Origin: Bdellovibrionales bacterium
Lineage (GTDB): Bacteria > Bdellovibrionota > Bdellovibrionia > Bdellovibrionales > JAGQZY01
Direction of reading: 5' to 3'
Assembly: GCA_043757265.1 (NCBI GenBank)
Contig: JAYUQP010000018.1
Coordinates: 27,620 to 91,619 of the forward strand
DNA length: 64,000 nucleotides
Shown here one piece after another: positions 12,387 through 45,687 of this stretch. Under the pieces are notes generated by a model. That model was not told where the DNA came from and made no database searches. It saw only the letters and a program-made list of their open reading frames with translations. Within the stretch, counting starts at the first letter, position 1. Every line of letters begins with the position of its first letter. The translations under genes and the position numbers were made by a program.

Positions 12387-12444
12387 GAGTCAGCCATTGC
12401 CACTGACTTCGCTGTTCAAAGAGTCAGCCATTGCCACTGGCTTC
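12387..12444. repeat. Tandem duplication (34-bp period) spanning the 3' end and stop codon of lpxH
   Basis: gagtcagccattgccactgActtc (12387-12410) and gagtcagccattgccactgGcttc (12421-12444). The second copy encodes the terminal ...SQWQWLTL* of lpxH. The first is a non-coding duplicate just downstream. Confidence 0.85.
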
Positions 12445-13150
12445 CGTGTTTGCGAAGTAGACGGCAGCCATCATCCCAACTTCCAAGATTGTAGCTAGTC
12501 ATTTTCTGCCCGCCTACAATAAACGTGGTTTCATCACGTAAATGCACGTGTCCCGTAACAATGGCTTGAAAAGGTCGTTCAGCAAAGACTTTGTTTGCAT
12601 GATTGTGAATGGTTTTTAGAATTCTTTGCGGATCCCGCAAGGAGTTTGTATATGCACGACTTGTTTTGCTCATGGTCCTACCAAGCCATGCAATAAAAAA
12701 TCCGGGCAGATAGAGGGCAATGGCCGTCATCACCGGGGTACGTAATAACCAGCGTAAAAATAAGTAACCTTTGTCGTCGGGATCCATTTGGTCGCCGTGC
12801 TCAACGCGCACGATTTCGTCGCCCATGTGAAAATACTCAGGATCGCTATGCACGATAATGCTGAGATCATCTTGCCAAAATTTTTTGAGGTGTAAATCAT
12901 GGTTACCCTCGAAATAGTGAATTTCCGAGCCTAAAGAGATCAATTTTTGCAGCTCTTCAATGAGCGGTTTGTATTTTTGAATAAAGTAATCGTGCTTGCC
13001 TATCCAAAGGTCAAAAATATCACCAACTAAAAATATAATTGATTGTTTTGCCTGGGACTCGAGGGAAATAAAAAAGCGCAGAAGAGTCTGCGCTTGGTCG
13101 TCATTCATATCTCTCAGATGTAAATCCGAGAGAAAATAATAACTTTTCAT
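12416..13150 (-). CDS. lpxH: UDP-2,3-diacylglucosamine pyrophosphatase (LpxH-type metallophosphoesterase)
   Basis: 244 aa. Motifs FLSDLHL, VGDIFDLWIG, GNHD and GHVH. Length and order of motifs match LpxH. Its start overlaps the ftsZ stop (TAATG). Confidence 0.85.
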   Translation of the reverse strand: MKSYYFLSDLHLRDMNDDQAQTLLRFFISLESQAKQSIIFLVGDIFDLWIGKHDYFIQKYKPLIEELQKLISLGSEIHYFEGNHDLHLKKFWQDDLSIIVHSDPEYFHMGDEIVRVEHGDQMDPDDKGYLFLRWLLRTPVMTAIALYLPGFFIAWLGRTMSKTSRAYTNSLRDPQRILKTIHNHANKVFAERPFQAIVTGHVHLRDETTFIVGGQKMTSYNLGSWDDGCRLLRKHGSQWQWLTL

Positions 13151-14691
13151 TACATCCCGTCCTGAGACTCCTCATTGCGCTGCTTGCGGCGCAAATAAGT
13201 AGGGACATCCAAATTTGACTGATCGAAAGGTGAGCTCAAATCCGCAGCGGCTCTTGCCGCATTGTGATCTAGGCTCATTTCCATGCTCAGCTGCTCAGTG
13301 GGTAGCTCTTTTTGTTTTAATGCCTGTTCGCGATAAGCTTTTGCTTTTGCGATCAACATATCACGCGAGTTTGCCGCCGCTGCATGAGCTGCTGCCTCGG
13401 CCTGATATTGCGCATTTGATGTGTCTATCGGTGCAGGCATCTCTTCAACAGTCGCTGTTGGAATCGCCATCGGAGTTGCTACAGGAGCCGCACCTGGATG
13501 GGCCATCGGCGCCGCAATCACAGAATTTACCGCGGTATTTGCTACGATCGGTTGATACATGTGTGCCGGCTGTGGAATAGGTGGCATTGGCTGTTGTGCA
13601 ATTGCCTGCGGTGGAACCGGTTGCTGATACTGAGGTTGATAATACTGTGGTGGTTGCTGTGACTGCGTTACGTAAATCGGTTGCTGCTGCTGAGCCTGGT
13701 ATGAGTAATGCTGGGGCACCCCCAATTTTACCTGATCCACACCAAATCCAGTTGCAATCACAGTGACGCGAACTTCGTCGCCAAGAGTTTCGTCAATCAC
13801 AGCCCCAAAAATGATTTCCGCCTCTTCGTGGGCAGCTTCGGTGATCAATGTTGATGCTTCGTTCACTTCGTGAAGGCTTAGATCTCTACCGCCCGTCACG
13901 TTAATGATAATTCCAGTAGCTCCATCAATCGAAATGTTTTCAAGAAGCGGCGATGAAATGGCTGCTGTTGCAGCTTCCACAGCGCGATTTTCACCGGTAG
14001 CTGATCCTGTTCCCATAATAGCCATGCCTTGCGTCGACATTACGGTGCGAATATCTGCAAAATCGAGGTTGATCAAACCGCGAATATTAATAAGATCAGA
14101 AATTCCCTTTACAGCCTGAAGTAAAACTTCATCAGCTTTGCGGAACATGTCTAGTAAAGATGTTTTTTCGTGCGAGATCGAAAGGAGCTTTTGGTTTGGA
14201 ATGACAATCAGTGTATCAACACTCTCGCGCAATTCGTTAAGACCACCAAAAGCGTGGCGCATTCTCTTTTTGCCCTCGAAGCTAAATGGCTTTGTGACCA
14301 CGCCAATTGTAAGAGCTCCTAGTTCTTTCGCGATCTTTGCAACGATCGGTGCTCCGCCAGTTCCTGTTCCGCCGCCCATACCAGCAGTTACAAAAACCAT
14401 GTCTGCGCCTTCAAGGGATTCTACAATATCATTGTAGGACTCAATAGCTGCGCGTTTTCCAACTTCAGGATTTGCGCCCGCTCCCAATCCTCGCGTGAGC
14501 TCTTTCCCAAGCTGTATTTTATTTTGTGCCTTATGCGCTTCAAGAGCTTGCCGATCTGTGTTTGCAACAACGAACTCCACCCCTGTAAGGCCGCCCTCGA
14601 TCATCGTTGTTACAGCGTTATTTCCGCCCCCACCAACGCCAATAACTTTGATTGTCGCGCCAATATTTACGTTTTCTTCTAACTCAAACAT
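13150..14691 (-). CDS. ftsZ: Cell division protein FtsZ (long Q/P-rich C-terminal linker)
   Basis: 513 aa. Tubulin signature [10 protein letters not shown] and N-terminal [15 protein letters not shown]-terminal peptide [15 protein letters not shown] Shine-Dalgarno upstream. Confidence 0.97.
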
Positions 14692-14708
14692 AGGTTCCCC
14701 TTTGTTGC

Positions 14709-15941
14709 TTATAATAAATTCTCAAAATAATTTTTGACCCTTTTCAAAGTTTCTTTAAAAGTGTCCAACGAAAACTCGCCAGTTTCAAAGTTTTGCCGAA
14801 CTCTGGCGTGCTGCAAAAGACCCACTGTCACCGACATTGCAGGACCTTGGGCCAGTGGATTCGTTGATAAGACATTGGTCAAACCACCACGGCGAACTGG
14901 AATATCAAATGTAAACTCGCCAAGTTCAGCTAAGCCCGGCAACTGACTTCCGCCGCCAGTTAACACCAAGCCGCCTTTGATGTGACTAAGCAAGCCCTCA
15001 TCATTCAATTTACGCAAAATCAGGCCCAGAGTTTCTTCGGCACGCGCCTCGAGAATTTCAGCAACGAGTTTAGATGCAACGATCTGAATGCCCTCGCCTT
15101 TGAGCGATTCCACTTCGACTTGTTCATCGTCGCTGATCAAATCAACCAGCGCCGCTCCATTGTTCTTTTTAATTTTCTCTGCCGCTGCCTGAGGTGTTCT
15201 TAGTCCCACGGCCAAATCATTGGTAAAGTGCGACCCGCCGATCGGCAATGTCTGACAAAGGGTCATTTTACCCTCTTTGAACACGATAAGTTGGGTCATC
15301 GCGCTACCAATATCGACCACGGCAATCCCCATTTCGCGATCATCAGCGGTCAGGAGAACTTCGCTACTGGCAATGGGCTGCGGAACAAATTCGATAATGT
15401 TTATTTTTGCTTGAGCGGCACAATCGCGAATGGTCTGCATGGTTTTTTTAGCGCCGATGATTAGCTGCGAATGAATTTCTACAGATGCTGCTTTTTGACC
15501 CACTGGTGATTTTGATTGTTTCTGACTGCCTAATTTGAAAAAGTGGGGTGCATGGTGAAGGATTTGCCGGTCGTTCCGCAGCGGCACTAATTCCTCGGCC
15601 ACTTTTTTTACAAGCTCAATATCCTTGGCACTCACTGTCTTTTTGATGGAAAGTACGCCTTTTGCGTAAAGGCTTTCGAGCGTGATGTCGGCTACGGAAG
15701 CATACACATCGCTGATAATCACATTTTGAGTCAGTTCCAGTTCGTTTTTGATTTTTTGAATGGCAGTGGTGATTTCGCGTGCATCGATGATCTGGCCTTG
15801 ATGAAGACCTTTGTGTGCAACTTGGGCTACGGAAACGATTTCTAATTTCTCACCAGAAATACGCCCCAAAGCCATAACCACTTTGGATGAACCGACTTCA
15901 AGACTTGTAAAATATTGCTCTTTCTCTTTCGACATCCGCAT
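14709..15941 (-). CDS. ftsA: Cell division protein FtsA
   Basis: 410 aa with an actin-like ATPase fold. Motifs [18 protein letters not shown] and [11 protein letters not shown]. Lies between ftsQ and ftsZ. Confidence 0.95.
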
Positions 15942-16001
15942 CCTTGGATTTGCCTACTATACGAACAATACTGTCCATTAGTAGAGCATCTATACCTTAG
16001 C

Positions 16002-16745
16002 CTACGAATGCTTACGCAGCCTGACAAGAACTTTTTTTGCAAAGCTCGCATCGATGACGCGCCATTTTTGATTTTGACTTTCCAAATACTTTAAGACGTT
16101 TGCAACACGTTTTGCTTTTAAGTAGACATCGCCGTGACCTAAAACGATTTCGCCTTCGACGCCGTCACTCATCTCGAGAACCAAACCTTGCGCGTCACTC
16201 CAATCAATCTCGGCCACCTCAGATTTAGAAATGACACCTTCGTTGGGAATCAATTGGTAATGCTCAATAATCTTTTTTCTAACAATTTCGTTTTTTAAAA
16301 AAATTGAATTCCGTACAAATGGAACGTCAGGAGCATGCACTAAATCCATGAGTGGAAGAAGCGAGCCATCTTCGGTTGCAGCACGCACTCTTTTTTTGCC
16401 TTCAAAAAACACCAAGACTACAGTTTTTAGAAGAAGTTTTACTTCGACCCGGTCAGGCCACACTCTCTCCACGCTGACTGATTGTACGCTGGGATCTTCT
16501 AACAGATTGCGACGGATTTCCTTAAGTGGAACTTGCCAAAGATTTTTATCTTTGTAAGCAAGAAATCGAACTAACCATTTTACTTGGGTCTGGCGCAACA
16601 TTTCGGGATGCCACTGGTCGCCCGTCACCGATACCTGGACATCATGAAATGCAAAAATCGTCTGATCAAAATGAAAAATATACGCCGTCATACTCAACAC
16701 GCTCAAAACCGAAGCAGCAATAAATATCTTTACAGATTTCGACAT
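16002..16745 (-). CDS. ftsQ: Cell division protein FtsQ (POTRA domain)
   Basis: 247 aa with a single N-terminal TM and a POTRA-like region (VQVSVTGD...). Position immediately upstream of ftsA. Confidence 0.8.
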   Translation of the reverse strand: MSKSVKIFIAASVLSVLSMTAYIFHFDQTIFAFHDVQVSVTGDQWHPEMLRQTQVKWLVRFLAYKDKNLWQVPLKEIRRNLLEDPSVQSVSVERVWPDRVEVKLLLKTVVLVFFEGKKRVRAATEDGSLLPLMDLVHAPDVPFVRNSIFLKNEIVRKKIIEHYQLIPNEGVISKSEVAEIDWSDAQGLVLEMSDGVEGEIVLGHGDVYLKAKRVANVLKYLESQNQKWRVIDASFAKKVLVRLRKHS

Positions 16746-16897
16746 AGTAATAGAATAATTTTGAAATCTTAAAAAAACAACGAAACCTCGGGTATGATCT
16801 CATTTGCCTGGACTATTGCGAAGAAAACGGCACGAAAATAGGCGAGAAACAATAGTCTAGGAAAAGCAGAGCACACCTGAGACTTTAAGGATTTTCT

Positions 16898-18031
16898 ATG
16901 CTTTCGATTTTCTGTATTATTTTTCTTTTTGCGCACACGTCCTTTGCAACGGGGCCGGCAACGGAGTTCGCATTTAGTGTGCAAGAAGAAACAAGTCTTT
17001 GGCAGCAACAGGTGCAAAAATTTCTGGCTGACAATCCGCAAGCTCAGCTTCTCACTCACGAGTCTTTACAAGCACTCTTTTTGCCCGCTAAAACTTCCGA
17101 CGCACCATTATTCATATTGTCATCGGGAATTCATGGCGCCGAAGCTTATGCCGGCGGCGCTTTGCAAAGGCTCTTTTTACAACAGTGGCAACTCACACCA
17201 AGAACCAGCGGACTCTTAATGATACACATCCTAAATCCCCACGGGTTTTCTCACTTTCGCCGTACCAATGCCTACAATGTTGATTTGAACCGCAACTTTT
17301 TTGTAGAGCCGCTACCAAACAATCAGGAATATAGAAATATGCAAACTTTGTTGGAACCAAATGCGCCAGCCTCCACATCGTTCCTTTCGAAATGGAATTT
17401 CTTTGTAAAAGTGGGTTGGTATTATTTGATGAATGGAAAAAAATCGATTCTCAATACGCTCGCTGGTCAAAGTCATGCTCCGAAAGGTTTGTATTTTTCG
17501 GGAACCGAAACACAAGCCGAAACTGTCGTCGTACAAAATTGGATTTTGCAGATCGCTAAAGACTTTTCCACAGTTTTACATATAGACCTCCACACCGGCT
17601 TCGGAGAGCGCGGAAAATTGCATTTTTATGGAAGCGAAGACTTTCGCCAGCCAGAACAAATTAAATCTCTTCAGAAGGTTTTCCCACACGTCAGAATTGA
17701 TACCGCTCATAATGCCGATTTTTATCCAACCCATGGAAATTTTATCGATTGGACCTGGAAAGCCTTACCGGAAAAAAAAATCATTCCCATGGTCTTCGAA
17801 TTTGGAACAAAAGACAGCCAAACCCTGCTGGGTGGAATGGAATCTTTCTGGATATCGGTGATCGAAAACCAAGGCTTTCATTTTGGATATAAAACAGACG
17901 AAGACAAACAAAACACCCGCGTGCTTTTTGAATCGTTGTTTAATCCCCAGGACGAAGCTTGGCGGAGGGCTGTACTTGAACAAGGCCAGGAAGCATTGAC
18001 CGAAGCCCTGCGGAACCTCGAAAAGAATTAG
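16898..18031 (+). CDS. Secreted M14-like zinc carboxypeptidase family protein (DUF2817-type)
   Basis: 377 aa with a signal peptide (MLSIFCIIFLFAHTSFA). Metal-ligand-like motifs GIHGAEAY (HxxE), DLNRNF and IDLHTGFG. Confidence 0.75.
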   Translation: MLSIFCIIFLFAHTSFATGPATEFAFSVQEETSLWQQQVQKFLADNPQAQLLTHESLQALFLPAKTSDAPLFILSSGIHGAEAYAGGALQRLFLQQWQLTPRTSGLLMIHILNPHGFSHFRRTNAYNVDLNRNFFVEPLPNNQEYRNMQTLLEPNAPASTSFLSKWNFFVKVGWYYLMNGKKSILNTLAGQSHAPKGLYFSGTETQAETVVVQNWILQIAKDFSTVLHIDLHTGFGERGKLHFYGSEDFRQPEQIKSLQKVFPHVRIDTAHNADFYPTHGNFIDWTWKALPEKKIIPMVFEFGTKDSQTLLGGMESFWISVIENQGFHFGYKTDEDKQNTRVLFESLFNPQDEAWRRAVLEQGQEALTEALRNLEKN

Positions 18032-18369
18032 AGTTATTCATTCCTTTAAGTTCTCTAGTAAATATTGGCCATTATTTCAATTGGCCCATCGCATTTCGTT
18101 TCAACTGGTGATAAAAAAAGTTTACGGGTTTTTATATCTTTTAGCTGGGCTGTGTTTGAATTTCGTTCTTGCTCTGGCAACTCTTGCACACTTTAAAAGT
18201 TCCGGCGGCCTAGGCTGTTTGTGAGTGTTACGCTTTCGACGATGTGTGTTTTCAAAACCTATTCTTTTTCGAAAAAAAATCAAAATCAGACCGTTCGGTA
18301 AGCACACTTGCTGATGTCGTGGCGGTTTGCCATGCTCTATGACCAACCGCCAACGTCAGTGCAATTTAA

Positions 18370-18693
18370 TTACATTCGCTCGGCAGGAACAATATAGCTC
18401 TGGAAGAAATCATCTTGGAAAACTTTTCCACTAAGACAAACTTCTTCGCCATCGACAAGGGCGTTAATAATTTGCGACGCCTTTTCGATATTATTGAAAT
18501 CGCCCGATGCCACGATTTCGTAAGTTTCGAACGCGGGCAAAAAGTCGCCAGCCGGCACTTCGAGTTTGTAAACCATCACTGTTGCCATCCCATTTGAAGA
18601 TTCGATTCTTACGGTTCCGCACAGTGGCTCATTCGCGCTCGCGTACACGTTTATTGAAGCCAAAAACACTATTACTACTGACATTATTTTCAT
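18370..18693 (-). CDS. Small secreted protein, unknown function
   Basis: The track ORF is 124 aa. An internal start gives MKIMSVVIVFLASINVYA/SANE..., a clean signal peptide. I recognise no family. Confidence 0.5.
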   Translation of the reverse strand: MKIMSVVIVFLASINVYASANEPLCGTVRIESSNGMATVMVYKLEVPAGDFLPAFETYEIVASGDFNNIEKASQIINALVDGEEVCLSGKVFQDDFFQSYIVPAERM

Positions 18694-18879
18694 ATCCCCT
18701 CCCAAGGTTGCAGATGTAGTATAGATAAAAAAAAGCTTTAGCAACGCCTCTACGAAAGCGGCCGTACACTTTGTAAAGTTGCTAAGGCCCTAACAGAACC
18801 CTGATGTTCGTAAATTCCCCTTGTCTCCAGTCTGTCCGTCACGGAGGCCTATTTAACATGGCACAATACCTGCACCAAC

Positions 18880-20490
18880 TTGACCGAGAATGGAAAAAGA
18901 ATTGCGGTTCGCTTGAATTTATTTTGGAGTCTTTTGTTCAGTACTTATCTTGTTGAAGACTGGGCCATCGTTGCAAGTTTGCTTGCTATTGCAGAGGGTA
19001 AGATCTCTTGGGGCGCGGCTTACGCTGCCTGCTTTTTTGGAATTTTAAGTGGTGATATTTTGCTCTACTTGCTGGGAAGATCCGCGAATATTTCTCCATG
19101 GCTGATGCATTGGTCTCTTTTTCAGAAAGTGCGCACTTTTATTAAAGAACCACGTCACCTCAATGCCATTGGGTGGGCCATCATTGTGGCCAGGGCTGTG
19201 CCTGGTACTCGATTTGTTACTTACACTGGAGCGGGGCTTGTCGCCTATTCTGCATGGCGATTTTTTATTTTAATTCCTCTTGCTGTCGCGGCCTGGGTGC
19301 TTCTCGCCTTTACCGGCGGTGGCGCCCTTCTTCAGTTGATTTCGACCCATTGGTTTTTTGGGTTGATGGTACTCCTGTCGACGTTCACTTTTCTACGAAT
19401 TCTAGTGCCAGTGCTTATTGACCCTTGGAATCGCAAATCGCTCATGCACACTTGGCGGCGCTGGTTTATTTTTGAATTCTGGCCTGCATGGTTCGCCTAC
19501 GCACCTCTTGTTCCGTATTATATTTACCTCTCCATCAAAAACGGCAGCGTATTTCATCCGTTCTACGCGAACCCAAGTATTCTTAACGGCGGACTCATTG
19601 GCGAAGCCAAGTGGGATATCCTTGGATATTTAGACCCTAAGGATCCCGCCACTTTGACAGTGATAAACATTCCCGCGGCCGCCCAATTCGAAAAAATAAA
19701 GACAAGGCTTGTGGAAAATTATTTTGAGTTTCCCTTAATTTGTAAGCCAAATGTCGGGCAACGCGGATTTGCCGTGCGGATCATTAAAAACTGGGAAGAG
19801 CTTGAGTCTTACGCCGAACATGCAAACTTTGATTTTTTGATTCAGCAAAAAAGCCGGTTTCGCCGCGAGGCCGGGATTTTCTACATCCGCCGACCTGGTG
19901 AGGACGTGGGCGAGATTTGCTCGATCACAGATAAGGATTTTCCGTTTGTTGTGGGCGACGGAAAAACAAAGCTAGGTGACCTCATTTTAAATGACCGTCG
20001 AGCCCGCATCATCGCTCCTATTTATTTTGGTCGACATCGTAAGGCTCTTGAAAAAATAATTGCTGCCGACGATGTTTTTTATCTTTCTGAGTGCGGAAAT
20101 CATTCCCAAGGAGCTATTTTTATAGATGGTCAGCATTTGCGCAGCGAGCCCCTGCGGAAACGCATCGATCAACTGGCTCATCGGTTACCACATTTTTATT
20201 TTGGACGTTTTGATGTGCGCTACAGAGATCATGAAAGTCTGATGCTTGGCCATGATTTTGAAATTGTTGAGATCAATGGTGCTGGAGCCGACATCACCCA
20301 CATCTACGATGAACACACCAAAGTTCGTGAAGCTTACCGAGTGATGTTTGGCCAGTGGCGTTCTTTGTTTGAAGTCGGCAAAGCCGCCCGCGCCATCCAT
20401 GGTGCTACGGCCTTGGTCGACACTCGCGCTTTCTTAAAGGAGTGCTTACGAGTGAATCTTCGCAAAAATGATTTATCAGTATCGACTTAG
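18880..20490 (+). CDS. Fusion protein: N-terminal DedA/VTT-family membrane domain plus C-terminal ATP-grasp ligase-like domain
   Basis: 536 aa. The N-terminal ~200 aa are polytopic, with DedA-like FGILSGDILLYLLGR and ARAVPGTRFVTYTGAG. The C-terminal part has ATP-grasp-like ICKPNVGQRGFAVRII and FEIVEINGAGADITHIYD. The TTG start is uncertain. Confidence 0.7.
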   Translation: MTENGKRIAVRLNLFWSLLFSTYLVEDWAIVASLLAIAEGKISWGAAYAACFFGILSGDILLYLLGRSANISPWLMHWSLFQKVRTFIKEPRHLNAIGWAIIVARAVPGTRFVTYTGAGLVAYSAWRFFILIPLAVAAWVLLAFTGGGALLQLISTHWFFGLMVLLSTFTFLRILVPVLIDPWNRKSLMHTWRRWFIFEFWPAWFAYAPLVPYYIYLSIKNGSVFHPFYANPSILNGGLIGEAKWDILGYLDPKDPATLTVINIPAAAQFEKIKTRLVENYFEFPLICKPNVGQRGFAVRIIKNWEELESYAEHANFDFLIQQKSRFRREAGIFYIRRPGEDVGEICSITDKDFPFVVGDGKTKLGDLILNDRRARIIAPIYFGRHRKALEKIIAADDVFYLSECGNHSQGAIFIDGQHLRSEPLRKRIDQLAHRLPHFYFGRFDVRYRDHESLMLGHDFEIVEINGAGADITHIYDEHTKVREAYRVMFGQWRSLFEVGKAARAIHGATALVDTRAFLKECLRVNLRKNDLSVST

Positions 20491-20544
20491 CCAAGACTTC
20501 GATGAGTTCTATATAAAATTGGCCATTTTTTAGTATCCACGAGT

Positions 20545-21438: not shown

Positions 21439-21462
21439 TTACGCTCCTTTTATACCAAATGG

Positions 21463-21676: not shown

Positions 21677-21687
21677 CGTTTGTACAC

Positions 21688-24137: not shown

Positions 24138-24183
24138 TCCTCCTTGAATAGAATCAGGAATAAGCGATTGAGATGAACTTTTA

Positions 24184-25296: not shown

Positions 25297-25345
25297 TGAG
25301 GCTGTCTAGAGAGAGTATCTCCCTAGACCAAAGCCCATGAGCACA

Positions 25346-30590: not shown

Positions 30591-30598
30591 GTTTTGTC

Positions 30599-34524: not shown

Positions 34525-34557
34525 TTAATTTGAACGAGTTGATTTGTTTCAACAGAC

Positions 34558-37523: not shown

Positions 37524-37712
37524 GGTACGGACACACTTTTGGGACTCACTGCATATAGAAAAGGAACTGGATTGTCCGATGCCAGGTCCTGTTTATGTCC
37601 GAGTGGGACGCTTCCGAACATAAACAGGACCTGGCACCGGAGACCGTATACCGTTTAAGGTACGCCGTTCCTTTTCTTTATGCAGTGAGTCCCAAAAGTG
37701 TGTCCGTACTTT
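37522..37712. repeat. 191-bp nested palindromic element (44-bp outer arms plus 26-bp inner hairpin) filling a convergent intergenic region
   Basis: The outer arm aggtacggacacacttttgggactcactgcatatagaaaaggaac (37523-37566) pairs with 37668-37711 (2 mismatches). The inner stem ccgatgccaggtcctgtttatgtccg pairs with cgaacataaacaggacctggcaccgg. The element starts inside the symporter stop codon and ends 3 nt from the cfa stop. Confidence 0.9.
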
Positions 37713-37714
37713 AC

Positions 37715-38890
37715 TTAAACCGGGGCGATCCAGTATTGGCTGACGCTGATTCGTTGCGCGCGGAACGCACCCTCGCAGTAGCTGAGATACAAATTCCATA
37801 GGCGAATAAATCGGTCGTCAAAACCCATGGCCCGTACATGCGGCAGAGCATTCATAAAATTCTCGCGCCATAACTTGAGCGTATGTGCATAATCCAAACC
37901 AAACTCATAGGAGTCGTATACAGCCAGTCCGTTTTGTTCACTCACCTTGGCAACAGCTTTGTCAGTCAAAAGCATTCCTCCCGGGAAAACCGATTGCTGA
38001 ATAAAATCTGTCCCTTTTTTGTAAGAGTAAAAAAGATCTTCGCGAATCGTGATTCCTTGAATGGCTGCCTTTCCTTTTTCTTTCAAAGATGATCGCATTT
38101 TTGAGAAAAAGGCATTCCAATACTGTTCGCCCACCGCTTCGATCATTTCGATGGAGACCACTTTGTCGTAGCGTCCAGAGATATCGCGGTAATCTTGTTG
38201 AATCACATTGACGTGGTCTTTCATGTTTAATTTTTCAATTCTCGTTTGGTTATAGCGGATCTGTTCCGGGGAATTTGCCACCGCCGTTACTTTGCAACCA
38301 GTACGCTCAATGGCACGGCTGAAAAACCCGCCCCAGCCACAACCAATTTCTAAAAGATGATCTCCTGATTTGATTTCTAAAGAATCAATAATCTGATCGT
38401 ACTTTTGGTTTTGCGCCTCTGCTAAACTCTGCTTCTCGTCTTTGAAAATTGCGGCTGAGTACGTCATGGATTGGTCGAGCCATAGACTATAAAACTCATT
38501 GCCTAAGTCGTAATGAGCCATAATATTCTTTTTCGCACCTTTGCGATTGTTGCGATTTAAAAAGTGGTGGACTTTCGAAGCGATGGTGCCGTACCACGAC
38601 CCGTAGATGACTTTAGCTAAATCTTGATCGTTGCGGCACGCCCACTCCACAAGCGCCGCCACATCATCAACCACCATAAGCTCGTCGACAATCGCCTCGG
38701 CCAAACCGATATCACCTTTGCTAAAAAGCAAATCGAGCGCCGTCCAATTTTTGAGATGCACATGAATGCGGGGCAAGCCTTCTCCGTACTGGTCGCGGCT
38801 CCCATCGGGCAATATTATGTCGAGTGTTCCATGCTTTGCGTTTTTGAGGACTTTGAGGAACATTTGTCCACGGAATGATGGGGCTTTCAT
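37715..38890 (-). CDS. cfa: Cyclopropane-fatty-acyl-phospholipid synthase family SAM-dependent methyltransferase
   Basis: 391 aa. SAM motif LLEIGCGWGGF and HYDLGNEFY upstream, with C-terminal YLSYCEGAF. These are classical CFA/mycolic acid methyltransferase motifs. Confidence 0.88.
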   Translation of the reverse strand: MKAPSFRGQMFLKVLKNAKHGTLDIILPDGSRDQYGEGLPRIHVHLKNWTALDLLFSKGDIGLAEAIVDELMVVDDVAALVEWACRNDQDLAKVIYGSWYGTIASKVHHFLNRNNRKGAKKNIMAHYDLGNEFYSLWLDQSMTYSAAIFKDEKQSLAEAQNQKYDQIIDSLEIKSGDHLLEIGCGWGGFFSRAIERTGCKVTAVANSPEQIRYNQTRIEKLNMKDHVNVIQQDYRDISGRYDKVVSIEMIEAVGEQYWNAFFSKMRSSLKEKGKAAIQGITIREDLFYSYKKGTDFIQQSVFPGGMLLTDKAVAKVSEQNGLAVYDSYEFGLDYAHTLKLWRENFMNALPHVRAMGFDDRFIRLWNLYLSYCEGAFRAQRISVSQYWIAPV

Positions 38891-39636
38891 TTTGTGACCT
38901 CCTTATGAGGTGGTGAAGGTTTAGAGTGAAAACGAATTCTACGAATCCATAATTTAAATGCTTGGTAATGTATTCGGAGAACCACCAAAGGCGTAATCCA
39001 TCCGTATTTGAAAAAAAGACTAAAAAAACCGTGCTGAGCAAGCGGCGTGAGATTGCCATTTACCCACGTCGCGAGACGAATTGATCCATTTGGATTGTAG
39101 TAGTTGATGTCGATTTTTATGCGACTTGGGCAAAACTGAAAACGAAATTTGTAAAATCCATCCACCGGGAAAAATGGCGACACATGAAATACTTTTTCTG
39201 AAGTATACCATTCAGAATCCGAAATACCTTGCGGAGGATTGATAAAATAAAAGTGACGTTCGCCAAAAGTGTTGTGAACTTCTACTAAAATAGCGTCGAG
39301 CTTAAAGTTTTTATAACAACACCAAAAAGTTACCGGATTGAATGCATAGCCAAACATACGCGGCATTGAATAAAGCCAAATTTTCTCGGGCTCGTAGCTG
39401 CATTGAACTCTGAGGAAGTCTTTAGCCGCCGTCGCGAGCGGTTGAGACGTTTGATTGAGATAATCTTCCGTTTTGAATGAAAGCAGACCAAAAAACTTTT
39501 TGCGTAAAACATTTAAAAAGTCGTTTTCCTTTTCACAATCAACGAAAACAAAAAAAGTAGGATAGCGAAATTTCGACTTAATGCCCTCTTTGCGGCTATG
39601 GTAAACAAAACCTTGGCTAAGCTTTAGACTACTCAT
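38887..39636 (-). CDS. DUF1365 family protein
   Basis: 249 aa. The N-terminus GFVYHSRKEGIKSKFRYPTFFVFVD fits the DUF1365 G-x-V-x-H-x-R...F-x-Y pattern. ATGA overlap with cfa, and an 8-nt overlap with the upstream flavoprotein gene. Confidence 0.8.
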   Translation of the reverse strand: MSSLKLSQGFVYHSRKEGIKSKFRYPTFFVFVDCEKENDFLNVLRKKFFGLLSFKTEDYLNQTSQPLATAAKDFLRVQCSYEPEKIWLYSMPRMFGYAFNPVTFWCCYKNFKLDAILVEVHNTFGERHFYFINPPQGISDSEWYTSEKVFHVSPFFPVDGFYKFRFQFCPSRIKIDINYYNPNGSIRLATWVNGNLTPLAQHGFFSLFFKYGWITPLVVLRIHYQAFKLWIRRIRFHSKPSPPHKEVTK

Positions 39637-40888
39637 TCGTCACCGTCCACGGAGTTGTAACCCCGAGCATCTCAGCCACCTGAACAGCGCTCAATAATCC
39701 GTCCTCGTGAAATCCATAACGGGTCCATGCCCCGGCATAATATACTCCACCATTTCCTTGAATTGAAGGCAGAAGGCGCTGAGCGCGAATAGCGGCTTGG
39801 TTAAACTGTGGATGCGAATAATCAATCTCACGCTGATAATCTTTTATTTCCGTTGCGGGGTTTAAGGTCAAAAAATAATCTTTCTTGCTCGGCAGCTTCT
39901 GCAGCTCATTCAGATGGTAGGTTAAGGAGACTTTGCTGCTTTCGCCACTGGCATCTCCATAAACGTTCCATGCAGACCAGCAGCGTTTTGTCCGTGGCAT
40001 TAATTCTTCGCGGTTGTGCAGGTAAGCCTTATTCGCCTCGTAGCAAATGGCCGAAAGGACGTTTTTCTCCTCAGCAGATTGATCCTTGAGAATCTTTGCG
40101 GTGATCGGCGCGTGAGTGGCAAGAACAACGCGGTCGAATTCGAAAGATTCCCTCGGAGTTTTTAAAAACACTTTGTTAACTGCTCGTTGAACATCGACGA
40201 CCGGAGACGATAGATGAATGTGTTTAATTTGCGCTGAGGCTTTTTTAACGTACTCAATACTTCCATTTTTTACAGTTCTCCAAACGGGGCGGTTGTTTAC
40301 TTGCAAAAGTTTATGGTTGATAAAGAAGGTTAAAAATGTGGACGCCGGAAACTCAAGCATCTTGTTTTCTGGCGTCGACCAAATGGCAGCACCAATCGGC
40401 AGAAGATAATCTGTTTTAAACACGTCCGAATATTTTCGAGCCTTTAGCATTTCACCCAGCGTCCAGGCATGGCGAAGCGCCGATTGGCGGTTCGTCTCAG
40501 CCTCTTTTCCGAAGCGCAAGATTTCTAAAAGCATTTTATAAAAACTGAGTTTAAATAAATTTTTTCGCTGGCCAAAAATCGTATTTAAATTTCCGCCACT
40601 CCACTCGAGATTTTTTTGCAAAACCTGAATGGATAGTGACATGCTTGAGTCTATGGTTTCAACATTGAGATGTTTGAAAAATTGTGTGAGGTGTGGATAC
40701 GTCAATTCGTTGTAAACCAAAAAACCGGTATCCATGGGTATGCTTCGTTCAGATTCGTTCATCTCAACTGTATGGGCATGTCCGCCGAGGCGAGAATCCG
40801 ACTCAAAAAGATGCACTTCGTGTTGCTTTGAAAGGAGCCATGCTGCGCCTATTCCGCTTATGCCTGAGCCAACCACTGCTATTTTCAT
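39629..40888 (-). CDS. FAD-dependent oxidoreductase (amine-oxidase / phytoene-desaturase-like)
   Basis: 419 aa. Dinucleotide-binding N-terminus MKIAVVGSGISGIGAAWLL...LFESDSRLGGH. It is the first gene of the three-gene operon. Confidence 0.85.
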   Translation of the reverse strand: MKIAVVGSGISGIGAAWLLSKQHEVHLFESDSRLGGHAHTVEMNESERSIPMDTGFLVYNELTYPHLTQFFKHLNVETIDSSMSLSIQVLQKNLEWSGGNLNTIFGQRKNLFKLSFYKMLLEILRFGKEAETNRQSALRHAWTLGEMLKARKYSDVFKTDYLLPIGAAIWSTPENKMLEFPASTFLTFFINHKLLQVNNRPVWRTVKNGSIEYVKKASAQIKHIHLSSPVVDVQRAVNKVFLKTPRESFEFDRVVLATHAPITAKILKDQSAEEKNVLSAICYEANKAYLHNREELMPRTKRCWSAWNVYGDASGESSKVSLTYHLNELQKLPSKKDYFLTLNPATEIKDYQREIDYSHPQFNQAAIRAQRLLPSIQGNGGVYYAGAWTRYGFHEDGLLSAVQVAEMLGVTTPWTVTNE

Positions 40889-40969
40889 GGTTTTATTCCA
40901 TTCGTATTAATGTCACACATGCTGACATTAAATCATTGATCTTTTAAAAGAGGAAGTGCAAAATAACTT

Positions 40970-41593
40970 ATGGCTCAGATTAAGAAAAGTATAAACGAAT
41001 GCACAACAACGAAACGAAAGTATAATAATTCGTCACGGGCCGAAAAATCGACGCAAACTCAGAAGGCTATTATCGAAGCATTGATCGAACTACTGGTCGA
41101 ACGTCGAGGCGGCGATGTGCAGCTTCAGGATGTGGCAAAAAGAATCGGAATCACTCAACGAACTATCTTTCGCTTTTTCAAAGATAAAAAAACACTGCAT
41201 GAAGCGATGGATACCTACCTTTTGGGTTACCTTCAATCGAGCACCGAGCAGATGGAAACACTTAGCTTTATCGGCTTTGCAAAAAACGCCTTTAAACTTT
41301 TTGATCATCATGAATCTCTCACCATGGCTTATGTTCTTTCGCCTTTTGGTCAAGAAGCCCGAGCGTTGCTACGAAAAAAATTAACGCATTTAATGATTGC
41401 GCGGATTGCTGCCGAGAAAAAAATCAATATGAATCCACAGATTTTAAAACGCTTAGCTCTTGTGACCTGTTTAGTGAATGCAAAAATTTGGTATGATCTG
41501 CGTGAAGATTTTGGATTCAACGGCGAAGAAATGGGCGAAGCCGTTGATTGGGCCCTGCAAAAACTAATACATAGCTGCGAGGAAAACATATGA
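40970..41593 (+). CDS. TetR/AcrR family transcriptional regulator
   Basis: 207 aa. N-terminal HTH LQDVAKRIGITQRTIFRFFKDKKTL. Divergent from the flavoprotein-DUF1365-cfa operon. Confidence 0.85.
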   Translation: MAQIKKSINECTTTKRKYNNSSRAEKSTQTQKAIIEALIELLVERRGGDVQLQDVAKRIGITQRTIFRFFKDKKTLHEAMDTYLLGYLQSSTEQMETLSFIGFAKNAFKLFDHHESLTMAYVLSPFGQEARALLRKKLTHLMIARIAAEKKINMNPQILKRLALVTCLVNAKIWYDLREDFGFNGEEMGEAVDWALQKLIHSCEENI

Positions 41594-42396
41594 TACGAAG
41601 AAATTTTTTGATTTTGACTTTGGTGCTCTCTGCTGGCATTTTTTTTGGCTGCGCGAGTCTTTTACATGCGAACAGGTATGATGTAAAAAAAGACGTCGCG
41701 TTCAAGACCGTCGAGGGTTTAACTCTAACAGCTGATTTGTACATTCCCAAACAAGGAAATAATCGTCCTGCAGTGGTGGTGGTTCACGGTGGATCGTGGG
41801 CGAAACGCAGCGGCGATATGGAAAGTCTCTGCAAAGATCTTGCTGCTGAGGGATTCGTTGCAATGAACGTGACGTATCGACTTGCTCCGCAGAACCTATA
41901 CCCAAAGGCTTTGGATGACGTGCGTGATGCTGTCACATGGCTCAAAAATAATTCACCCCGACTGAAGGTGGATGCAAAAAATATCTCGATTTGGGGTTAT
42001 TCCTCGGGCGCTCACCTGTCATTGCTCACAAGCCTGGATGGCACTCTCGGCATCAAGGCTGTCGTAGCTGGTGGAACGCCAGCGAATCTGACAGCGTGGC
42101 CCAACTCGCCGCTCGTGAAAACATTTTTGGGCGCAACCTACGCGGAGGCTCCGCAACTTTGGGAAAAGGCTTCGCCCGTGTTCAACGTGACCGATAATTC
42201 GCCGCCAGTCTTTTTATATCACGGCGCCTGGGACAGCCTTGTTGAACCTGAACAAATGGACATGATGGCTGAAGCATTGCGGAAAAAGAATCGCGAAGTA
42301 ACAACCTACCGCGCGCCGTTTTTTGGCCATATCGCAGTTTACTTATTCAGCTTCTCGTCCGTAAATCAGGGAATCGAATTCATCAAAGCGCACTAA
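41590..42396 (+). CDS. Alpha/beta hydrolase lipoprotein (esterase/lipase-like)
   Basis: 268 aa with lipobox FFGC. Oxyanion-region VVVHGGSW and nucleophile elbow GYSSGAH (GxSxG). ATGA overlap with the TetR gene. Confidence 0.8.
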   Translation: MIRRNFLILTLVLSAGIFFGCASLLHANRYDVKKDVAFKTVEGLTLTADLYIPKQGNNRPAVVVVHGGSWAKRSGDMESLCKDLAAEGFVAMNVTYRLAPQNLYPKALDDVRDAVTWLKNNSPRLKVDAKNISIWGYSSGAHLSLLTSLDGTLGIKAVVAGGTPANLTAWPNSPLVKTFLGATYAEAPQLWEKASPVFNVTDNSPPVFLYHGAWDSLVEPEQMDMMAEALRKKNREVTTYRAPFFGHIAVYLFSFSSVNQGIEFIKAH

Positions 42397-42589
42397 GGTA
42401 CGGAAAGACTTTTGGAACTCCGTTTGTTGGACTTCTAAATTTGAAATCGTTCTTTTGATGAGAAGATCCTCCTTGGCTCATTTGCTTTCGTTCCACGATC
42501 GTATCTCGGACAATCCGGTGCCAGGTTCTGTTTGTGTCCGGAGACGTGGTGCCCGGACACAAACAGGACCTGGCACCGGATTGTCCGGA
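42395..42589. repeat. 195-bp intergenic element related to 37522..37712 (same 5' end and same inner hairpin family)
   Basis: It starts aaggtacggaaagacttttggaactc (compare aaggtacggacacacttttgggactc). It contains a 35-bp stem: cggacaatccggtgccaggttctgtttgtgtccgg pairs with ccggacacaaacaggacctggcaccggattgtccg. It lies between the convergent hydrolase and ftsI stops. Confidence 0.85.
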
Positions 42590-42590
42590 G

Positions 42591-44507
42591 TCATTCTAAA
42601 TAGACTTTAAGTTTTTTGTCGTCAGTCCATGCTTCGCCGACGGCGGGAGATGTTTTAACGACGCGGCCTTTGCGGCCCACGAGATTTAAATCCACTTTTT
42701 CTTTTTGTACGAAGCGAAGCACATCGCGAAGGGCCCAGCCTTTCATCTCCGGAACAAAACCTTCGCCCTCGGCGCCTGCGAGAACTTCATGAACTTCTGT
42801 GCGTGGCTTAATCAAGTCCTCCACTGCAAACTGCACTGGCGCGAGACCTCGCTTGTTAATTGCATAATGGGCAATCTTTGCAAAAATCGGAGCTGCAGTT
42901 TCTGCCCCGTAGTATCCGTTATTCCTGGGATTATCCACCACGACATAAATTAAAAATTCGGGATCATTGGCAGGTAAAAATCCTATGAAACTCGAGATGT
43001 ACTGTCCCTTCAAATATCCCCGGCCATTGGGATCTACTTTTTGCGCAGTCCCCGTCTTACCTGCAACTGGGAATCCCCGCACGCGGGCCGATTTACCGGT
43101 GGCTGTTTCGGCAGTGGCCGCGACAAGCATCATTTTAACTCTCTCAGCTTCCTTTTCCGAAAGAACACGGCCGAGAGTGCGCTCCTGCGCGGCTTTTCCA
43201 TCTAAGATTTCTTTTTGCGATTTGACTAAAATCGGTCGCTGCAAAACTCCCTTATTAGCAATGGCGGCGTAGGCATTTGCCATTTGCAAAGCTGTTACGG
43301 CCACACCGTGACCAAAAGAGATATTCGCCTTATGATGATCGCGCCATGGAGGAGTTAGTAAAATTCCTTTAGACTCCCCTGGCAAATCAATACCGGTTTT
43401 TTCGCCGAAACCAAATTTTTTATATTCGCTAAAAATTTGTTGATCTTTCATCTTCAGCGAAATTTTCGAAATACCAACATTGGACGAGTTTGCTAAAACT
43501 TCGGTGGTAGAAAGTTTTTCGTAAGTATGTTGCGCATCAGATTCGCGAATCATTCGCTTATCGATTTCGATCTGCCCGGTAGATGTATCAATCACCGAAT
43601 TGCCTTGGATGATTCCGTTTTTAAGAGCGGCGGCCAAGAACATGGTCTTCATGGTGCTGCCGGGTTCGTAAACATCAGTCGAAATACGATTTCGTCGAGA
43701 CTCTTTACTGGCACCGCCCGCATTGTTAATATCAAAGTCAGGAAGCGAAGCCATAGTCAGGATCTCACCCGTTTTCGGGCTCATAACCACGGCCCATGCG
43801 GCCTCGGCATTATGATGCAAGATTGCCTTTTTGAGTTCTTGCTCGGTGTAGTACTGCAAATCGGCGTCGATGGTTAAATACACATCTTCACCGTCCCGAT
43901 TTTGCATAAACAGCCAACCGTCTTCAACGAGAAATCGGCCGCGCGCATCTTTTGGTAAGTTCATCACTTTTTCTTCGGCACTTAAGCGCGCATCATAGCG
44001 TGCTTCGATACCCTCAAGACCGTGTCCGTCCGCTCCCACAAAACCAATGGTGTGCGCCATAAGATTTTTGTTCGGGTAAACACGTTTGAATTCATCTTTG
44101 AAGCCTAGGCCTTTTTCGTTGAGCGCTAAAATTTTCTTTTTCGTATTTTCGTCGAGCAAACGTTGCATCCAAACAAAACGCGAGTTTTTTTTAGTTAATT
44201 TTTTATAAATAGTTTTTTGCGAGAGTGGAAGAATCTGCGACATTTTTTTTGCCAAGCGCCGCGGCGTTTTAATTAAGAGCGGGTCGGCAAAGAGCGAGGA
44301 TGAAGGCACCGAGATTGCAAGTTCTTGGCCGTTCCGATCAAAGATGTCTCCCCGCTTGGAATAAAGCTTTACGATTCTTTGATATTGTTTTTGGCTGGCG
44401 AGATCCAAATTATGACTAGGATACAACTGAATTTGCAAACCGCGAAAAACTAGTAATGACCAGATTGCGAAAAACCAGATGAGGAGAATAGATAAACGAT
44501 GCTTCAT
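42591..44507 (-). CDS. ftsI: Peptidoglycan D,D-transpeptidase FtsI (class B PBP) with a C-terminal PASTA domain
   Basis: 638 aa with an N-terminal TM. Motifs STMK (GSTMKT), SSN (NSSNVG) and KTGT (GKTGTAQ). The last ~60 aa (VPEMKGWALRDVLRFV...GRVVKTSPAVG) look like a PASTA domain. Confidence 0.93.
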   Translation of the reverse strand: MKHRLSILLIWFFAIWSLLVFRGLQIQLYPSHNLDLASQKQYQRIVKLYSKRGDIFDRNGQELAISVPSSSLFADPLLIKTPRRLAKKMSQILPLSQKTIYKKLTKKNSRFVWMQRLLDENTKKKILALNEKGLGFKDEFKRVYPNKNLMAHTIGFVGADGHGLEGIEARYDARLSAEEKVMNLPKDARGRFLVEDGWLFMQNRDGEDVYLTIDADLQYYTEQELKKAILHHNAEAAWAVVMSPKTGEILTMASLPDFDINNAGGASKESRRNRISTDVYEPGSTMKTMFLAAALKNGIIQGNSVIDTSTGQIEIDKRMIRESDAQHTYEKLSTTEVLANSSNVGISKISLKMKDQQIFSEYKKFGFGEKTGIDLPGESKGILLTPPWRDHHKANISFGHGVAVTALQMANAYAAIANKGVLQRPILVKSQKEILDGKAAQERTLGRVLSEKEAERVKMMLVAATAETATGKSARVRGFPVAGKTGTAQKVDPNGRGYLKGQYISSFIGFLPANDPEFLIYVVVDNPRNNGYYGAETAAPIFAKIAHYAINKRGLAPVQFAVEDLIKPRTEVHEVLAGAEGEGFVPEMKGWALRDVLRFVQKEKVDLNLVGRKGRVVKTSPAVGEAWTDDKKLKVYLE

Positions 44508-44510
44508 ACT

Positions 44511-44807
44511 CTACTTTACAGCGACAGTGCCTTGGCCGGCCACACGAATAATTTGTCCCTGTTTTGCGTTTTGAAAAGTGAGTTGTGTGGTGGCAATTTT
44601 TCGGACGCGCTCGGGGCTTGTCATCTTGGCTAAGCTCACCATACCAAGGCGCTGCCTTTGAGTAGCGCGCTTCTCTTTTTCGGCGAGATCCAACAGAACA
44701 TATCCCATCCGACGATTTTCCATTTTTACGTAAACGATTGCAAAGAGTGACAACAGAAGAATAAAAACGCTCACAAACGGTTTTATATTTTCACTCATTT
44801 TTTTCAT
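44511..44807 (-). CDS. ftsL: Cell division protein FtsL-like
   Basis: Small bitopic protein (TM FVSVFILLLSLFAIVYV) between rsmH and ftsI. I chose the ATG at 44807 because GGAGG lies 5 nt upstream. This start overlaps rsmH by 17 nt. Confidence 0.7.
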   Translation of the reverse strand: MKKMSENIKPFVSVFILLLSLFAIVYVKMENRRMGYVLLDLAEKEKRATQRQRLGMVSLAKMTSPERVRKIATTQLTFQNAKQGQIIRVAGQGTVAVK

Positions 44808-45687
44808 CCGACCTCCGTAAAAATCCGCGTAACTTCGCACTCCGAGATCGAGGATTCAACTTCTGCTCCTCATCGCTGGCGACAATTACCTTCTTATTAA
44901 TACGATACCCGAACTCTTCATGATCCTTAAAGATATTTTTAGCAATCCGATCCTCCAGCGAGTGAAACGTCATCACCACGAGCACTCCGCCCGGGACTAA
45001 AGCCTGGATCATGCGCGGCAAACTCTCTCGCACACTCTCGAGCTCCTGATTGACTCGCAACCGAAGTCCCAAAAAATACTGAGTGGCTGGGTGTTTGCCT
45101 TTCTGTCGCCAGCCCTCAATACGCTCAATCAAGCCCGCAAGTTGAAGTGTGGTTGTAAATGGCTTCGTTTGTCGGTCAAATAAGATGGCGCGAATCACGC
45201 GATACGGGCTATGAACTTCGCCGTAATTTTTAAAAATATCGATGAGGTCCTCCTCATCCCATTCGTTGATCATGGTAGCCGCGGAAATTTTCTGATTTTG
45301 GTTCATCCGCATGTCTAAAGGTCCATTGTGATAAAAGCTAAAGCCGCGCTCAGGATTATCAAGTTGGGGCGAACTCACTCCAAGATCTAGTAACATCAAA
45401 TCGAACAGCTCCTGATTTTGTTCGGTGAATTTCGCAAACGTTCCATGGAACATGGTGAGGCGTTTTGGAAATAGCGGCTCGATGATCTTTTCGCCGTGTT
45501 CGATGGCCGTTAAATCCTGATCCACCCCCACAACGTGCAGATTTGGAAATTTTCGCAACAGTTCCGAGGTATGACCCCCGCGCCCGAAGGTGCCATCGAG
45601 CATTTTGCGTGGATCTGGTGGCCCGGCCTTAAACAGTTCGATAATTTCATTTAACATGACGGGAACGTGCAAATTGGATTCTGACAT
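44791..45687 (-). CDS. rsmH: 16S rRNA (cytosine1402-N4)-methyltransferase
   Basis: 298 aa. HVPVML N-terminus, DGTFGRGGHT, DLGVSSPQLD and FHSLEDR motifs. Confidence 0.95.
   Translation of the reverse strand: MSESNLHVPVMLNEIIELFKAGPPDPRKMLDGTFGRGGHTSELLRKFPNLHVVGVDQDLTAIEHGEKIIEPLFPKRLTMFHGTFAKFTEQNQELFDLMLLDLGVSSPQLDNPERGFSFYHNGPLDMRMNQNQKISAATMINEWDEEDLIDIFKNYGEVHSPYRVIRAILFDRQTKPFTTTLQLAGLIERIEGWRQKGKHPATQYFLGLRLRVNQELESVRESLPRMIQALVPGGVLVVMTFHSLEDRIAKNIFKDHEEFGYRINKKVIVASDEEQKLNPRSRSAKLRGFLRRSDEKNE

Follow-up and report, generated by a model that had tools for sequence, protein, structure and literature searches.

A cluster of division and cell-wall genes split into four blocks in a Bdellovibrionales bacterium: probable erosion at insertion-tolerant junctions

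The cluster of genes for division and the cell wall (dcw) is among the most conserved bacterial gene arrangements, and lineages in which it is broken show which of its links are dispensable. A stretch of 64,000 nucleotides from an uncultured Bdellovibrionales bacterium (Pseudobdellovibrionaceae; contig JAYUQP010000018.1 of assembly GCA_043757265.1), hereafter the window, carries such a broken cluster. Its core gene set is complete: 14 genes from rsmH to ftsZ lie in canonical order between positions 12416 and 45687, all on the minus strand. Three gaps totalling 15.6 kb and holding 14 unrelated open reading frames (ORFs) on both strands divide these genes into four blocks, so that the cluster as a whole is not contiguous. 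This locus raises the question of whether the intervening DNA belongs to the cluster, arrived recently from elsewhere or gathered there as an ancestral arrangement decayed. Our analysis makes it probable that we are looking at an eroded dcw cluster, once contiguous, which lost mraZ and ddl and gathered unrelated genes at three tolerant junctions.

An initial annotation of this DNA had proposed canonical gene order inside the four blocks, gaps of about 9, 2.8 and 3.8 kb, and gap genes on both strands. Pfam, NCBIfam and the ORF map agree on the order, the ORF map shows the two strands, and the gaps measure 9,020 bp between ftsI and murE (island 1, 33571-42590), 2,825 bp between murD and ftsW (island 2, 25297-28121) and 3,799 bp between murB and ftsQ (island 3, 16746-20544). 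Besides the NCBIfam models of Table 2, Pfam also identifies the four Mur ligases, MraY, FtsW, MurG and MurB. Neighbours within a block overlap or are spaced by 3-60 bp, the successive spacers of murE-murF-mraY-murD being -4, 8 and 3 bp; the sole exception is the murC|murB spacer of 249 bp. The weakest assignment is that of ftsL, which has a 98-aa orthologue in the same position in three related loci (L086-L088).

To place this arrangement in context, we compared it with 80 species-level loci of relatives (numbered L001 onwards), gathered by a genome-collection scan with MurD (67-98% MurD identity) and titled Bdellovibrionales, Pseudobdellovibrionaceae or Bdellovibrionota metagenome-assembled genomes (MAGs). 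A metagenome scan with FtsI added a single locus of 3.8 kb. The nearest relative, L001, shares about 75-81% DNA identity with the window and consequently represents another species of the same genus. The window proteins were mapped onto all loci by tblastn, and a junction was called tight when its spacer was below 400 bp and otherwise interrupted or lacking its partner. The junctions that separate the blocks of the window were interrupted more often than those inside the blocks (Table 1; pooled, Fisher p = 5e-35), and their minimum numbers of independent state changes indicate that they were broken repeatedly.

Table 1. State of the dcw junctions among the relatives; changes are the minimum independent state changes on a neighbour-joining tree
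Junction	Place in window	Tight	Interrupted or partner absent	Changes
ftsI|murE	between blocks	25	19	7
murD|ftsW	between blocks	22	44	13
murB|ftsQ	between blocks	5	24	5
murE|murF	within block	54	3	2
murF|mraY	within block	51	11 interrupted (8 inserted, 3 open; of 62); intermediate	11
mraY|murD	within block	69	0	0
ftsW|murG	within block	38	7 interrupted; intermediate	6
murG|murC	within block	38	2	1
murC|murB	within block	34	1	0
ftsQ|ftsA	within block	11	1	
ftsA|ftsZ	within block	8	0	

No relative had the identical interrupted order and many were contiguous, which does not fit an ancient arrangement fixed in this form. The run from rsmH to ftsZ, together with an LpxH-like gene, is fully contiguous in L049 (a complete chromosome, OZ244239.1), L033, L046 and L071. 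In 13 related loci rsmH is immediately preceded by mraZ, and in 6 a canonical ddl lies between murB and ftsQ. Given these canonical positions and the contiguous clusters, the state of the window is derived.

Neither gene could be found in the window. Upstream of rsmH, 138 bp separate it from a divergent gene of 311 aa, too little space for mraZ, which is absent throughout the window's clade. No ORF of at least 100 aa in the 64 kb matched the Pfam families MraZ or Dala_Dala_lig, and six-frame tblastn of the window returned only noise with the MraZ and Ddl proteins of Escherichia coli and Bacillus subtilis and of relatives (taken from their loci). The annotation's statements that no mraZ precedes rsmH and that no canonical ddl is present are thereby borne out within the window, and about 9 kb beyond its ends, reached via rpsD and LysR, hold neither gene. 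The Dala_Dala_lig family did match three of the relatives' inserted ORFs scanned. A possible ddl remnant at 18327-18479 (53 aa, E 0.05) was rejected, as none of the residues conserved in Ddl is retained and a stop codon falls within it. In 5 relatives murB directly abuts ftsQ, with no gene between them, so in this order ddl commonly resides away from the cluster. Since MurF is intact, D-Ala-D-Ala is still needed and ddl is expected elsewhere in the source genome, where we infer that it resides.

The DNA that fills the gaps turns over rapidly. Even relatives with 92-98% identical FtsI or MurD differ from the window in island content. In the relatives as a whole, 245 of 386 gap ORFs are singletons, and no family exceeds 9 members. 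Closed gaps contain 129 ORFs, which between them match 82 different Pfam families; catalase, penicillin amidase, scramblase, FeoB, two-component systems and arginine deiminases are among these, and one of the closed-gap ORFs is a phage integrase. A conserved insertion of 2-3.6 kb at ftsW|murG characterizes one sister clade (L015, L016, L018, L019 and L006); it encodes proteins of the DDAH/arginine-deiminase type and of the Porphyromonas-type peptidyl-arginine deiminase kind. An HNH-endonuclease ORF of about 370 aa (e.g., L033 6911-8029) occurs at four dcw junctions of relatives, namely twice at murF|mraY, once at murD|ftsW and once downstream of murB, which suggests a mobile gene aimed at intergenic dcw sites.

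In composition, the island genes do not stand apart. GC content, GC content at third codon positions (GC3) and codon-usage deviation showed no difference between island genes and dcw or flanking genes (p 0.1-0.9; against the core, p 0.5-0.9). For tetranucleotides only island 2 was borderline, with r 0.80 against a 5th percentile of 0.81 for random segments of equal length. The window contains no integrase or transposase by Pfam, in line with the annotation, and no tRNA or Rfam match. With a composition that matches the core and with none of these genes, the inserted DNA looks native to the lineage, and transfer from a distant source is less likely than relocation or an exchange among relatives. 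The annotation's view of the islands as accessory thus stands as far as their variability among close relatives is concerned; recently foreign they are not.

Taken together, these data are best explained as follows. The ancestor of the order would have possessed a contiguous mraZ-rsmH-ftsL-ftsI-murE-murF-mraY-murD-ftsW-murG-murC-murB-ddl-ftsQ-ftsA-ftsZ cluster. In the window's lineage mraZ and ddl would have been lost from it, the loss of mraZ probably removing MraZ control of the first promoter, and unrelated genes would have accumulated at three insertion-tolerant junctions, which may tolerate insertion because they match boundaries between co-translated modules. The four blocks most likely correspond to four operons, each driven from a promoter of its own: rsmH-ftsL-ftsI; murE-murF-mraY-murD, perhaps together with the 126-aa gene of island 2; ftsW-murG-murC-murB, perhaps together with the SGNH gene; and ftsQ-ftsA-ftsZ with the LpxH-like gene. 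A single dcw transcript across islands with genes on both strands can reasonably be considered impossible. The inserted stretches would be mosaics with fast turnover rather than functional parts of the division machinery. They would combine older, genus-level cores (the S1 protease, the 381-aa protein and the SDF symporter beside murE; DUF2817 beside ftsQ) with species-specific modules (a furan-fatty-acid-like cassette with its TetR and esterase genes, a pair of genes for 474- and 126-aa proteins, and a DedA-ATP-grasp gene). The probable source of this DNA is the gene pool of the lineage itself, through relocation or through exchange between relatives, rather than distant donors, and repeats resembling miniature inverted-repeat transposable elements (MITEs), which mark at least one module boundary, may promote such rearrangements.

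Several points weigh against this reading. Consensus promoter and terminator scans of the region from 12 to 47 kb found no more sites than shuffled sequence, and the four transcription units are read from gene layout. The location of ddl elsewhere in the genome is assumed. The four-block scheme is a tendency, not a rule, and murF|mraY, intact in the window, is broken in a fair number of relatives. The neighbour-joining tree was built from two proteins only, MraY and MurD; FtsQ is poorly conserved, so some of the murB|ftsQ junctions with no partner found may reflect a missed FtsQ; and the 10-kb flank and the ends of contigs constrain which junctions were scored as open. The repeats could be mere intergenic passengers.

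Table 2. Features of the dcw region and its immediate surroundings in the window
Feature	Position	Strand	Evidence	Location and remarks
rsmH (mraW)	44791-45687	-	Pfam Methyltransf_5, E 6e-86	block 1, first gene
ftsL, putative	44511-44840	-	position, size, weak Pfam FtsL match (E 0.009)	block 1
ftsI (class B penicillin-binding protein)	42591-44507	-	Pfam Transpeptidase, PBP_dimer, PASTA; NCBIfam	closes block 1
murE	32065-33570	-	NCBIfam 509 bits, above curated cut-off	block 2 (28122-33570)
murF	30599-32068	-	NCBIfam 362 bits, above curated cut-off	block 2
mraY	29514-30590	-	NCBIfam 399.5 bits, above curated cut-off	block 2
murD	28122-29510	-	NCBIfam 425 bits, above curated cut-off	block 2
ftsW	24184-25296	-	NCBIfam 339.5 bits, above curated cut-off	block 3 (20545-25296)
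murG	23019-24137	-	NCBIfam 279 bits, above curated cut-off	block 3
murC	21688-23022	-	NCBIfam 490 bits, above curated cut-off	block 3
murB	20545-21438	-	NCBIfam 290 bits, above curated cut-off	block 3
ftsQ	16002-16745	-	Pfam, POTRA domain	block 4 (12416-16745)
ftsA	14709-15941	-	Pfam	block 4
ftsZ	13150-14691	-	Pfam	block 4
LpxH-like metallophosphoesterase	12416-13150	-		block 4; overlaps ftsZ stop by 1 nt
S1 protease (Trypsin_2)	33799-34524	+	Pfam	island 1, older core (33799-37523)
381-aa lipoprotein-like protein	34558-35703	-		island 1, older core
SDF symporter	36333-37523	+	Pfam	island 1, older core
CMAS	37715-38890	-	Pfam	island 1, variable module (37716-42393); resembles ufaM
DUF1365, 249 aa	38887-39636	-	Pfam	island 1, variable module; resembles ufaO
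FAD amine oxidase	39629-40888	-	Pfam	island 1, variable module; resembles ufaD
TetR regulator	40970-41593	+	Pfam	island 1, variable module
BD-FAE esterase (alpha/beta hydrolase)	41590-42396	+	Pfam	island 1, variable module
126-aa exported protein	27555-27935	-		island 2
474-aa Cys-rich exported orphan	26134-27558	+		island 2; GC 52%
SGNH lipoprotein (GDSL)	25346-26005	-	Pfam	island 2
DedA/VTT and ATP-grasp fusion, 536 aa	18880-20490	+	weak Pfam VTT/DedA at N-terminus; AlphaFold2	island 3
124-aa exported protein	18370-18744	-		island 3
DUF2817, exported, M14-like	16898-18031	+	Pfam; weak MpaA and AstE matches	island 3
elA, 197-bp nested palindrome	37519-37715			between SDF and CMAS
elB, palindromic element of about 197 bp	42394-42590			between BD-FAE stop and ftsI stop
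elC, 210-bp palindromic element	21465-21674			murC|murB spacer
PBP4 (Peptidase_S13)	48130-49578		Pfam	upstream, 2.4 kb from rsmH

Island 1 consists of a part next to murE that is shared within the clade and a part next to ftsI that is not. The S1 and SDF genes adjoin murE throughout the window's clade (L001-L005, L087 and L088), joined by the gene for the 381-aa protein in the closest relatives L001 and L088. The ftsI-proximal part holds TrkA, TrkH and heme-oxygenase-like genes in L087 (from the genome of L004) and trypsin, FGE-sulfatase, CBS and Macro genes in L088, whose FtsI is 92% identical to that of the window; CMAS also occurs in L001. DNA homology between the window and L088 is interrupted from the ftsI stop (42601) to 37520, so that the non-homologous segment extends from the left end of the repeat elA (37519/37520) to the right end of the repeat elB (42590/42601). 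Because parts of islands 1 and 3 (S1, the 381-aa protein, SDF and DUF2817) are conserved at genus level, the islands are layered mosaics and do not represent three single events.

Within the variable module, the CMAS, DUF1365 and amine oxidase genes resemble a furan fatty acid cassette. Furan fatty acid genes are arranged as ufaD-ufaO-ufaM in Rhodobacter sphaeroides (RSP1091-1090) and Rhodopseudomonas palustris (RPA2571-2569), and UfaO is a DUF1365 protein of 250 aa (PMC7380195). In the window, adjacent genes of the same families (FAD amine-oxidase-like, DUF1365 and the SAM methylase type CMAS) overlap on one strand in the same order; unlike their counterparts they sit in a dcw island beside TetR and esterase genes.

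The same module is bounded exactly by two related nested palindromes in direct orientation, about 5 kb apart. elA combines an inner hairpin with outer arms of 49 nt that are 96% complementary, and these outer arms recur in L001 at 695-731 and 856-879. elB, immediately after ftsI, forms an 81-nt hairpin (RNA fold -73.5 kcal/mol, z -11). A third element, elC, swells the murC|murB spacer to the length given above, compared with 30-52 bp in L001, L002 and L004; L003 has a different palindrome at this site. None of the three matched Rfam or a known family. They share with repetitive extragenic palindromic (REP) sequences, bacterial interspersed mosaic elements (BIMEs) and MITEs their length (197-210 bp), long terminal inverted repeats, nested hairpins and modular, non-coding nature, as well as a strictly intergenic location, several related copies and presence or absence between close relatives. 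The initial annotation, in its reading of the islands, had overlooked these MITE-like repeats. They may serve to terminate transcripts or stabilise RNA and may also provide substrates for rearrangement; with low probability, the three dcw junctions could be genuine recombination hot spots that palindromic repeats maintain. Copies were searched for in the window and in the relatives' loci; bounding repeats occur only at the 37519-42590 module, the other island boundaries having none. A further inverted repeat lies outside the cluster, in the GGDEF-lspA intergenic region (52027-52090 and 52230-52293; 64-nt arms, 94% identical), and its core is 82% identical to L001 755-837, just downstream of CMAS.

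Island 2 is young. The murD|ftsW spacer in the window's clade measures 62 bp in L003, 150 bp in L004, 497 bp in L002, 2,411 bp in L001, 2,825 bp in the window and 6,465 bp in L005; the L001 gap shares only the SGNH gene with the window and the L005 gap holds other genes. The 126-aa and SGNH genes are on the dcw strand. Counterparts of the 474- and 126-aa proteins, with 37% identity each and likewise convergent, are encoded at a non-dcw locus in the genome of L003 (L092 10001-11823). Full-length homologues of the pair were found in the same genus only, at this other chromosomal site, and their family counts just 14 representatives among 1.84 billion. The two convergent genes for exported proteins make up a conserved module.

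Island 3 occupies the slot in which 6 relatives carry ddl. DUF2817 is found in the murB|ftsQ slot of L001, L004 and L006 as well. What separates it from murB varies: L006 has 41 bp there, L004 about 0.7 kb, L001 four unrelated genes, and the window the DedA-ATP-grasp gene and the 124-aa ORF. The annotation had seen no Ddl-like ORF in this slot: there is indeed no Ddl orthologue, but a divergent ATP-grasp domain, part of the fusion at 18880-20490, had been missed. The fusion protein belongs to an uncharacterised family of about 525 aa with more than 500 full-length homologues. Its AlphaFold2 model (35 homologues; predicted local distance difference test, pLDDT, 86) predicts a membrane domain made of helices and, after it, an ATP-grasp domain, the latter fold covering the C-terminal 290 of 536 residues. 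In a Foldseek search of the PDB, the model matched cyanophycin synthetases and GshF best (E 1e-7), and dozens of Ddl structures came next (E 1e-5); 146 matches reached E <= 1e-3 and the top 50 were all ATP-grasp enzymes. The K, R-x-D and E-x-N motifs of ATP-grasp enzymes are invariant across the 35 homologues. On this modelled structure the protein is assigned to the ATP-grasp superfamily, its C-terminus being predicted to resemble the G domain of cyanophycin synthetase, GshF and Ddl. It differs from Ddl in that a multi-helix DedA/VTT membrane domain replaces the Ddl N-domain and sequence similarity is negligible. Pfam and NCBIfam gave no Ddl match, only a weak RimK match (E 0.014), and hhalign against the Ddl profile aligned 36 columns at 30% probability; the fusion was rejected as a Ddl orthologue on these grounds.

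The interruptions could in principle be assembly or binning artefacts of a metagenome-assembled contig, given that the source and most relatives are MAGs and that the contig of the L002 genome breaks right after ftsI. An independent Logan contig, L081, is identical to the window base for base from recN to murB (recN-lpxH-like-ftsZAQ-DUF2817-...-murB), thus covering block 4, island 3 and murB, and L001, L087 and L088 carry orthologous islands with the same flanking genes. As L081 reproduces the arrangement, an assembly artefact is ruled out, and the broader reading as artefact retains practically no credibility. It has also to be asked whether the fusion replaces Ddl or acts on lipid-linked peptidoglycan precursors, in which case the absence of ddl would be only apparent. 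The gene lies exactly where 6 relatives have ddl, the predicted fold brings Ddl structures among its Foldseek matches (E 1e-7 to 1e-5), the ATP-grasp motifs are conserved and neither the window nor the extra flank provides a ddl. Against this, the gene is encoded on the strand opposite to the cluster, lacks the Ddl N-terminal domain and any Dala_Dala_lig match, and aligns poorly with the Ddl profile. Two of its many homologues whose contexts we examined are both unrelated to dcw, L001 lacks it at this site, and the 5 relatives in which murB abuts ftsQ possess neither gene. We consider such a replacement highly improbable and treat the position of the gene in the ddl slot as coincidental. That the fusion has any role connected to the cell wall is scarcely more than a long shot, and the same holds for the specific proposal of a membrane-tethered amino-acid ligase that works on lipid-linked cell-wall precursors or supplies D-Ala-D-Ala; if true, the lineage would have swapped the canonical cytoplasmic Ddl for a non-canonical enzyme.

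More serious are the two explanations that concern the islands as a whole. In one, the arrangement is ancient and fixed, the island genes being conserved and belonging, with an integrated function, to an extended dcw cluster specific to the lineage. The clade-wide S1 and SDF genes beside murE, with the 381-aa protein in the closest relatives, the recurrence of DUF2817 beside ftsQ, its weak similarity to the murein-peptide amidase MpaA and the conservation of PBP4 nearby all point that way. Beyond the genus-level clade, however, the same junctions are tight or filled with unrelated genes; L003 and L004 lack island 2; even the closest relatives do not conserve the DedA-ATP-grasp gene, the 474/126 pair or the CMAS module at these sites; and the two homologues of the fusion examined elsewhere show no linkage to dcw. 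The synteny data have already largely refuted this explanation, which we regard as improbable. The other holds that the islands were recently acquired from distant donors through mobile elements. It would account for content that varies between close relatives, for a 5-kb module bounded by direct copies of a palindromic repeat, for the borderline tetranucleotides of island 2 and the GC content of its 474-aa gene, and for the HNH-endonuclease ORF and phage integrase at the junctions of relatives. It is contradicted by the lack of integrase, transposase and tRNA in the window, by GC, GC3 and codon usage that match core and flanks, and by the confinement of full-length 474/126 homologues to another site in the same genus. 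Recent acquisition from distant donors is accordingly unlikely, and erosion with native DNA remains the explanation that we favour.

Compared with the dcw clusters of E. coli and B. subtilis, the window agrees in its 14 core genes and in how these are ordered and oriented, with tight or overlapping genes within blocks, and differs from the canonical cluster by its three interruptions with genes on both strands and by the lack of mraZ and ddl. In E. coli, Pmra together with internal promoters accounts for most transcription of the cluster, which has a single terminator, an arrangement that presumably cannot hold in the split cluster of the window. As in E. coli, where lpxC follows ftsZ, a lipid-A gene is found after ftsZ, here the LpxH-like gene; its product matches the NCBIfam LpxH models with E 3e-31, yet below their cut-off, and the same gene directly follows ftsZ in L033, L046 and L049. 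The dcw cluster is reportedly contiguous ancestrally, with lineage-specific losses of mraZ and ddl and cluster splits. Fragmentation and the loss of these genes are thus known phenomena; the window is a further, well-resolved example of ordinary cluster erosion and reveals no new mechanism. In contrast to phylum-level surveys, the erosion is seen here at species level within one order, the same junctions being reused at least 5-13 times with unrelated cargo. Our literature search turned up no paper that describes how dcw genes are arranged in Pseudobdellovibrionaceae and nothing relevant on Bdellovibrio and mraZ. The relatives amount to a natural experiment in which the same three or four junctions break again and again and fill with unrelated genes, while the links that hold (mraY-murD, murG-murC-murB and ftsQ-ftsA-ftsZ) provide a map of minimal co-expression modules. 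For studies of Bdellovibrio-like predators, which grow and divide in an unusual way, the result is a useful background. Only the DedA-ATP-grasp family and the palindromic repeats possibly merit more work.

The remaining observations concern exported proteins and the flanks. Inspection by eye assigns signal or lipoprotein-like sequences at the N-terminus to 8 of the 14 island proteins. The hydrolases that the annotation had listed in the islands were recovered by Pfam as Trypsin_2/S1, a BD-FAE alpha/beta hydrolase, GDSL/SGNH and the M14-like DUF2817, as was the PBP4 endopeptidase (Peptidase_S13) that it had placed 2.4 kb outside the cluster. The upstream flank (the 311-aa gene, UPRTase, PRT and PBP4) is conserved across the window's clade. 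A protease-rich flank content is typical of Bdellovibrio-like genomes; the flanks of the window encode an M3 oligopeptidase (7515-9548, plus strand) and a prolyl oligopeptidase of family S9 (58064-60208, minus strand), as well as a Ser/Thr kinase with a PEGA-like domain (5573-7462, plus strand).

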